Sequence record: PP461118.1
DNA: 64,000 nucleotides
Strand: one strand, 5' to 3'
Origin: Enterobacteria phage ECP2307
Shown in pieces: positions 50,618 to 50,705 of the stretch. The position numbers and the translations under genes are program-made. How positions within the stretch are numbered: the stretch's first letter is position 1; every line of letters starts with the position of its first letter. The notes under the pieces were generated by a model that was given only the letters and a program-made list of their open reading frames with translations, was not told where the DNA came from and did not search any database.

Positions 50618-50705
50618 CTTTTTAGAGAACTTCTAAGAACCTAAGCAACAAGGTTCCACAACAAGCTGTAATAACCTTAGAAGCCCTCTAAAAAGACCTA
50701 ATTTG
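50618..50705. repeat. near-perfect 20-bp inverted repeat enclosing a 48-nt loop
   Basis: CTTTTTAGAGAACTTCTAAG (50618..50637) pairs with CTTAGAAGCCCTCTAAAAAG (50686..50705), 18/20 complementary. Confidence 0.5.

Follow-up and report, generated by a model that had tools for sequence, protein, structure and literature searches.

A conserved RNA hairpin flush against tRNA-Leu(UAG) in the tRNA array of a Felix O1-like phage

What is a long inverted repeat doing in the middle of a phage tRNA array? The window, which is the whole 64,000-nucleotide stretch of Enterobacteria phage ECP2307 (PP461118.1) analysed here, comes from a Felixounavirus (Felix O1-like myovirus) and contains 26 tRNA genes predicted by ARAGORN at 47699–52876, all on the minus strand. 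An earlier note on this DNA had reported two 20-bp arms, 18/20 complementary, inside the array and within a 256-bp tRNA-free gap between the tRNA with the TAG anticodon and tRNA-Ser. The arms are located exactly there, at 50618–50637 and 50676–50695 with 18 of 20 positions complementary, and the gap is bounded in the ARAGORN prediction by tRNA-Leu(tag) (50533–50610) and tRNA-Ser(tga) (50867–50956). The loop had been given as 48 nt, but the arms are only 38 nt apart (50638–50675). The 20-bp arms are real, but they belong to a longer helix with 27 nt in each arm (50611–50637 and 50676–50702).

Only one inverted repeat with 20-nt arms, at most two mismatches and a loop of 3–60 nt was found in the 64-kb window, compared with a mean of 0.025 per window in 40 first-order Markov simulations, which keep the dinucleotide make-up of the real window. 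The two mismatches implied by the 18/20 count exist on the plus strand, where they are A·C, but not on the minus strand. There, both of the mismatched positions in the 20-nt core are G·U pairs (GGGC/GUUC), and the RNA helix is therefore mismatch-free. In the RNA sense, the 5′ arm (AUUAGGUCUUUUUAGAGGGCUUCUAAG, 50676..50702, minus strand) was defined by the repeat search, pair counts in 16 distinct relatives and folds of the variants, and the 3′ arm (CUUAGAAGUUCUCUAAAAAGAUUUAAU, 50611..50637, minus strand) by the repeat search, ARAGORN and the pair counts. RNA structure prediction, a check proposed in the earlier note, gave a stable 92-nt hairpin with a folding energy of −37.9 kcal/mol, compared with −18.4 ± 2.8 kcal/mol for shuffles (z = −6.9). 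The last base of the 3′ arm adjoins G1 of tRNA-Leu(UAG) (50610), which was identified by both ARAGORN and Rfam (50533..50610, minus strand) and opens a closely spaced block of eight tRNAs that lies downstream. The ARAGORN boundary of this tRNA implies a seven-pair acceptor stem, and the long stem ends at the base that precedes G1. The junction, ...AAAGAUUUAAU followed by the tRNA G, is the same in all relatives, and it contains the spacer motif UUAAU, which is also common between adjacent tRNAs. Both the strand and the junction had been missed before: the relevant RNA is that of the minus strand, and its helix is flush with the 5′ end of tRNA-Leu. A motif at the stem base, TCTANAAAGAT, was enriched in the window (27 versus 10 expected), which was judged to be compositional because the matches outside the array have no common wider context.

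The region 50400–51100 matches 255 phage records at 80–99% identity. The spacer, searched as a 266-nt query, was found in 253 phage records, with at least 80% of the query covered in 251, and is 100% identical to that of phage UAB_Phi87. The pairing was examined in 29 loci, comprising 17 IMG/VR contigs obtained with a tRNA-Leu pattern and 12 GenBank phages picked for divergence, which span Felixounavirus, Mooglevirus and Suspvirus and contain 16 distinct hairpin sequences. When the 27-pair helix was imposed on the 16 versions, 95.6% of the 430 cells were standard pairs, and sliding the 3′ partner by 1–3 columns as a control reduced the pairing to 34–63%. Double, compensatory changes occurred at two pairs (U-A to G-C, in four of the sequences, and U-A to C-G), and eight further pairs were changed on one side via G·U; this covariation covers three genera and reflects few independent events or lineages. 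G·U pairs occupy 66 cells (15% of the helix cells) and are A·C on the plus strand, an asymmetry that was observed in all relatives. The lower stem of Mooglevirus and Suspvirus contains a U·C mismatch, which is present in 6 of the 16 versions. All 16 variants fold into the same hairpin, with mean energies of −35.0 kcal/mol in the sense and −22.2 kcal/mol in the antisense direction, the sense RNA being about 13 kcal/mol more stable, and the long helix was also recovered by RNAalifold from the consensus of the whole spacer. Because the pairing, the G·U asymmetry and the folds all point one way, these results indicate that the inverted repeat is a conserved RNA helix on the minus (tRNA-sense) strand. 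Conservation in related phages, which the earlier note had named as a check, is thus borne out, with the helix kept in three genera and the spacer present in all those records. An RNase III site, a protein-binding site and a small structured RNA had been its suggestions, any of which may apply. A structured RNA is supported on the tRNA-sense strand by the compensatory and G·U changes.

Two sigma-70-like promoters are located upstream on the same strand (52932→52903 and 51502→51474). The second one (TTGACA-N17-TATAGT) is strong promoter-like and is P45 of Felix O1. A terminator scan of the minus strand found no terminator-like site inside the array, which places the hairpin within a long polycistronic precursor, and we infer that the spacer is transcribed as part of this tRNA/ncRNA precursor. 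The scan did not call TTGCTT-N18-TAAAAA, a possible but too weak sigma-70 promoter within the hairpin.

The hairpin is accompanied by other conserved elements in the spacer. Just upstream is a mini hairpin (AAAGACC-AAAUUA-GGUCUUU, 50692..50711, minus strand), found in the sequence, the alignment and the RNAalifold consensus, whose loop is variable among relatives and whose stem pairing is kept via G·U. As the 3′ strand of the mini hairpin is also part of the base of the long helix, the two pairings are alternative to each other. It is preceded by a near-invariant core of about 85 nt, AAAGCACCUAGUAGGUG...GACUAUGC (50712..50795, minus strand), which in alignments of the three genera is as conserved as the tRNAs, although these genera differ by about 20% elsewhere. 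The core contains no conserved ORF and has no Rfam match, and no relative of it was found elsewhere in the window, in Klebsiella phage FBKp34, Aeromonas phage LAh_6 or Erwinia phage phiEa21-4, or in the T4 tRNA cluster. At the 5′ end, the sequence and alignment show two hairpins (50800..50853, minus strand), the first lineage-variable and the second conserved (CGUGUA-UUGUCG-UACACG). Since the hairpin, the mini hairpin and the conserved core line up in it, the 256-nt spacer looks like one structured RNA with the hairpin as its 3′ end. The genome papers of Felix O1 and UAB_Phi87 describe nothing in this spacer. When the array and the spacer alone were searched against Rfam at E up to 10, the spacer hairpin matched only sub-threshold plant miRNA-precursor models, indicating a generic long hairpin rather than an Rfam family. 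A tRNA or pseudo-tRNA was also rejected, as ARAGORN predicts no gene in 50611–50866 and Rfam, even with E allowed up to 10, gives no tRNA match there. High conservation across genera (85–100%) is also seen in further tRNA-free spacers, at 50109–50203, 50957–51193 and 51271–51517, and the last of them, which contains the P45 site, gave sub-threshold Rfam matches to tmRNA and permuted tmRNA (16–29 bits, E 0.002–0.006).

The explanation that we prefer, whose probability falls a little short of an even chance, is that the hairpin acts in cis on the polycistronic tRNA/ncRNA precursor, as a stem for its processing and stability. The 92-nt hairpin would then be the 3′-terminal structure of a spacer RNA of about 250 nt that is freed between tRNA-Ser(UGA) and tRNA-Leu(UAG). 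We infer that RNase P would cut at G1 of tRNA-Leu, which is the 3′ end of the stem, and/or RNase III would cut within the helix of about 2.5 turns, either cut parting the spacer RNA from the downstream eight-tRNA block, and that the leftover stem would shield the upstream spacer RNA against 3′ exonucleases. The stem may also act as an insulator by which the spacer and tRNA sequences are kept from mispairing. RNase III hairpins are known from the T7 early region, such as the R1.1 site, and from the leader-trailer stalks of 16S and 23S rRNA. Like the phage hairpin, these have a long helix of at least about two turns between functional RNAs of one transcript; they belong to the transcribed strand too, none is a terminator, and the upstream product could retain a protective 3′ hairpin. 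In contrast, the T7 sites part mRNAs, whereas the phage hairpin, whose cleavage is only predicted, abuts a tRNA 5′ end and RNase P would be needed too; neither the T7 nor the rRNA sites have a counterpart of its conserved apical loop. About 22 bp of dsRNA fit into E. coli RNase III (PMC6212723), and the hairpin stem, with 27 pairs including G·U, is long enough for this, though only as the tRNA-sense RNA.

Analogous helices recur in the array. Element I2 (51756..51899, minus strand) is a 22–24-bp helix that closes a domain of about 100 nt and ends 4 nt before tRNA-Lys(UUU), and element I6 (51275..51309, minus strand) is a 16-bp hairpin that ends 4 nt before tRNA-Arg(UCU). Both are kept in relatives through compensatory or wobble changes, including a U-A to C-G compensatory change in the conserved I2. 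Two Mooglevirus phages have another, longer hairpin at the I6 site, and this replacement by an unlike hairpin favours a structural rather than a sequence-specific role. The repeat search also found a 13-bp leader-trailer helix around tRNA-Ser(UGA) (50867..50956, minus strand, predicted by ARAGORN), the tRNA upstream of the spacer, which extends its acceptor stem (50856–50868 / 50957–50969, minus strand). Two tRNA-Met genes of phiEa21-4 are likewise bracketed (locus L032 22475–22575 and 23534–23629). Together with the hairpin, these examples indicate that helices flanking or preceding tRNAs are a theme of these arrays. A cis-acting stem therefore accounts for the position, the strand, the preservation of stem pairing over sequence and the recurrence before other tRNAs. 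It leaves the conservation of a 9-nt loop amid a drifting stem unexplained, which is why we hold it only tentatively and regard a trans-acting or protein-binding role as the main rival.

The apical region (50638..50675, minus strand), as defined by alignments and folds, consists of the 5′-side internal loop GUUAUUACAGCUUGUUGUG and an inner stem GAACC/GGUUC. The internal loop is 19 nt long in Felixounavirus, where the whole hairpin is a 92-nt, long-stem structure, and about 5–8 nt long in the other genera, as 12 nt of it are deleted in Mooglevirus and Suspvirus. The apical loop itself, UUGUUGCUU (50643..50651, minus strand), is single-copy in the window and, in the alignments, identical in 15 of the 16 distinct versions, with one base different in one phage (UUGUUGCUC). 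In the upper stem, 7 of 14 pairs vary while this loop stays near-invariant. Judged from this sequence pattern, the loop suggests a role beyond that of a plain cleavage site.

It is thus conceivable, though rather unlikely, that the hairpin, once excised, or the whole spacer RNA that ends in it works as a small RNA in trans or bound to a protein, with the conserved loop as its active part. It could, for example, be a partner, decoy or regulator for the Ro60-like protein whose gene is upstream, or be linked to an RNA-binding protein of the host or to a defence system. The near-invariant loop on a varying stem is what such a role would lead one to expect, and the shape of the hairpin, 92 nt with a long stem formed by its ends and an internal loop, is Y-RNA-like. 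However, no target was found for the loop: the window contains no second copy or complement of TTGTTGCTT. Pairing of the loop with the CAGCAA motif described below was rejected, as the complementarity is 5 nt, too short to mean anything.

The Ro60-like protein, one candidate partner, is encoded just upstream of the array. The gene at 53042–54457 (minus strand), directly upstream of the tRNAs, encodes a 471-aa DUF2828+DUF7788 protein, which has the same length and position as Bas63 gp130 (bas63_0130) and is its positional orthologue. Proteins of the gp130 type are more than 95% identical across Felixounavirus. Bas63 gp130 is reported to have a Ro60-like structure and to counter Ppl defence, and the authors of that work guessed that some phage "tRNA genes" might be Y RNAs (PMC11482910). 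When a three-sequence profile of the DUF2828 protein was searched against PDB, Ro60 chains were the top two matches, though weak ones (E 0.078 and 0.77), and the protein sequence alone matched nothing in PDB. DUF2828 homologues were found in 709 phage records from many host genera, several of them annotated as "Ro-like RNA binding protein". This gene next to the array speaks for a protein-bound hairpin RNA. Against it, gp130 alone was active against Ppl after transfer into T7, so this anti-Ppl effect does not depend on a phage RNA.

Four paralogous stem-closed "CAGCAA" RNAs, U1–U4, are present in the array spacers nearer the Ro60-like gene (U1, 52634–52707; U2, 52480–52540; U3, 52045–52124; U4, 51900–52032; all on the minus strand). 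Their common form is 5′ CAGAAGACC-NNNU-NNCAGCAA ... NNNGGUCUGG 3′, with a closing stem AGA-N4/N4′-UCU-G and UU[AUG]CAGCAA directly after the 5′ strand. U4 has the YrlA-type tRNA-mimic layout (Chen et al. 2014), consisting of a T-arm, a closed hairpin that is acceptor-like and is represented by three different covarying stems in relatives, and a D-arm. None of the four is annotated in the records examined or present in Rfam. They are candidate Y RNAs of the upstream Ro60-like protein. Such units also adjoin the DUF2828 gene in FBKp34 (three units, one tRNA-like; locus L030 9527–9815, plus strand) and in LAh_6, where at least eight lie by the DUF2828 gene, one with a 20-bp stem (locus L031 3529–3588, 6986–7195 and 7593–7960, plus strand; no tRNA array annotated nearby). 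An unannotated tRNA-like gene, recognised by eye only, is located at about 6905–6985 of the same locus (plus strand), just before the first CAGCAA unit. The tRNA array of phiEa21-4 (locus L032 21823–25229) contains no CAGCAA units, and no DUF2828 gene was found beside this array or elsewhere in the first 45 kb of the phage. Among 11 units, the closing stem is paired in 90.8% of cells, a value inflated by choosing the units by eye for having the stem, and five of the seven pairs change on both sides. The covariance model of the family, R2, scored U1–U4 at 30–54 bits (E 2e-10 to 3e-5) and found U4, the F3 unit of FBKp34 and two more LAh_6 units, all outside its training set; a rigid regular expression recovered only part of the units.

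The hairpin resembles these units in some respects. In its Felixounavirus form, it shares the 7-nt UUACAGC, located directly after the 5′ stem strand, and AGA/UCU pairs with the CAGCAA units, but nothing more, and UUACAGC is deleted in Mooglevirus and Suspvirus. R2 scored the hairpin at 9.4 bits (E 1.3, filters off), and it is therefore not a member of the CAGCAA family. The covariance model of the hairpin, R1, detected no paralogue within the window and gave no convincing match in phiEa21-4; its sole outside match was the palindromic long-stem CAGCAA unit beside the LAh_6 DUF2828 gene (27 bits, E 3.7e-5), though on the opposite strand. A weak R1 match (16.5 bits, E 0.05) was noted at 54923–55019, a palindromic A/T-rich intergenic region upstream of a DUF5681 gene; this stretch between divergent genes probably has a regulatory or terminator function. 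Bacterial and phage Y RNAs, which are partners of Ro60 and include YrlA, YrlB and Yrl1/2 of Thermus phage phiLo, are similar in size (80–130 nt) and, like the hairpin, have a long stem in which the two ends of the RNA pair and a nearby Ro60-like gene. They also have a large internal loop; that of the hairpin is 19 nt in Felixounavirus and about 5–8 nt in the other genera. The Ro60-binding motif, near the 5′ strand, is GNCGAAN0-1G or CGAA, and GGUCCGA in animals. Unlike these RNAs, the hairpin has no GNCGAA/CGAA motif, no tRNA-like module and no Rfam match to Y_RNA or YrlA, and it also fails the model of the Y-like units in its own array. These differences weigh against a Ro60-bound hairpin as well. 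A more specific proposal, which we consider unlikely, is that the hairpin is a dedicated RNA of a phage Ro60-like RNP, the array encoding both the Y-like U1–U4 and long-stem RNAs (the hairpin and I2). The loop or stem of the long-stem RNAs would then be the binding site of the Ro60-like protein, or of a nuclease or defence factor of the host, and serve, for instance, as a gate, tether or decoy.

An equally improbable reading is that the hairpin is an evolutionary remnant with a neutral or insulating effect, either a decayed paralogue of I2 or of the unit family, or the leader-trailer helix of a lost tRNA. The 5′ arms of the hairpin and I2 align with a score of 33, compared with 21.2 ± 4.0 for shuffles, 11 of 500 of which reach 33, so that a paralogous origin of the two is suggestive at the sequence level. 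The leader-trailer helices around tRNA-Ser(UGA) and around the two tRNA-Met genes of phiEa21-4 show the kind of structure from which such a remnant could derive, the mini hairpin uses the AGACC/GGUCU stem of U1–U4 (though with a loop of only 6 nt), and the 12-nt indel between genera in the apical region would also fit. What three genera and about 250 genomes show, pairing maintained through compensatory changes and a loop that hardly varies, is, however, hard to reconcile with a decaying element, and neither ARAGORN nor Rfam detected a tRNA remnant within the hairpin.

A role at the DNA level, as a cruciform or protein-binding palindrome, for instance the boundary or recognition site of an adjacent HNH cassette, is very unlikely. 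In Michonne, EcSzw-2 and PC79-13, an HNH gene (Pfam HNH) is located exactly between the hairpin and tRNA-Leu, as a homing-endonuclease insertion (locus L019 2541–3006, also loci L020 and L021; the corresponding site in the window is 50600–50611). The hairpin is followed, in this order, by UUUAAU, the initial 11 nt of a tRNA-Leu of the window type, the HNH ORF and a different tRNA-Leu(UAG) allele, and GGGAG in the 11-nt remnant serves as the Shine-Dalgarno sequence of the ORF. This second, divergent tRNA-Leu(UAG) allele was also observed without an HNH gene, in Sf14 and typing phage 8. The junction of the hairpin and tRNA-Leu thus marks a recombination hot spot. Phages that have the HNH gene and phages that lack it conserve the hairpin equally well, its G·U cells would be mismatches in DNA, and its variation keeps RNA pairing rather than palindromy, which disfavours a DNA-level role. 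The same phages also count against the cis-acting stem that we prefer, as their hairpin no longer adjoins a tRNA and is still conserved, and so does the U·C mismatch in the lower stem of Mooglevirus and Suspvirus.

Finally, it is highly improbable that the hairpin belongs to a small coding gene (a 48-aa ORF at 50633–50779, which some relatives list as hypothetical) or is an intrinsic terminator or attenuator. In favour of these readings, small CDSs are annotated here in some GenBank records, and a U run follows the mini hairpin. However, no Shine-Dalgarno sequence precedes the GTG start of the ORF, and its reading frame differs between genera beyond about 25 codons (in the C-terminal part) and is cut short in ESh22 by a stop after 19 codons. 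As for a terminator, the long stem has an A/U-rich base with UUUAAUG behind it, the mini hairpin is too weak, with four strong pairs, and was not called by the scan, and no terminator was called on the minus strand at 50600–50720, in agreement with the earlier view that the helix is longer than a terminator needs.

A precedent is offered by the T4 tRNA cluster, where the small stable RNAs rnaC (species 1) and rnaD (species 2) are likewise structured non-tRNA RNAs amid phage tRNA genes on the same strand. A homing-endonuclease gene is a neighbour in both cases, segB in the T4 cluster and HNH in relatives of this phage. In contrast, rnaC ends in a T-arm-like module whereas the phage hairpin is a plain long hairpin, and the T4 cluster gave no significant match to R1 or R2, showing no sequence relation. 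The hairpin has features in common with RNase III hairpins, T4 rnaC/rnaD and Y RNAs, and is homologous to none of them. It is not described in Rfam or in the literature searched.

Phage tRNA arrays are usually annotated as tRNAs and empty spacers. Here, conservation of the spacers matches that of the tRNAs, and the 3′ end of at least one spacer is a covarying RNA helix that directly adjoins a tRNA. Should the hairpin be a processing and stability element, it would show how a mixed tRNA/ncRNA precursor of 4–5 kb gets cut up, in a phage group that is widely used for typing and therapy. The hairpin also marks a conserved spacer RNA of about 250 nt. The previously undescribed Y-RNA-like units directly downstream of the Ro60-like anti-defence gene may matter more than the hairpin itself, because the U1–U4 family makes the long-standing question of the RNA partners of phage Ro60 homologues directly testable.
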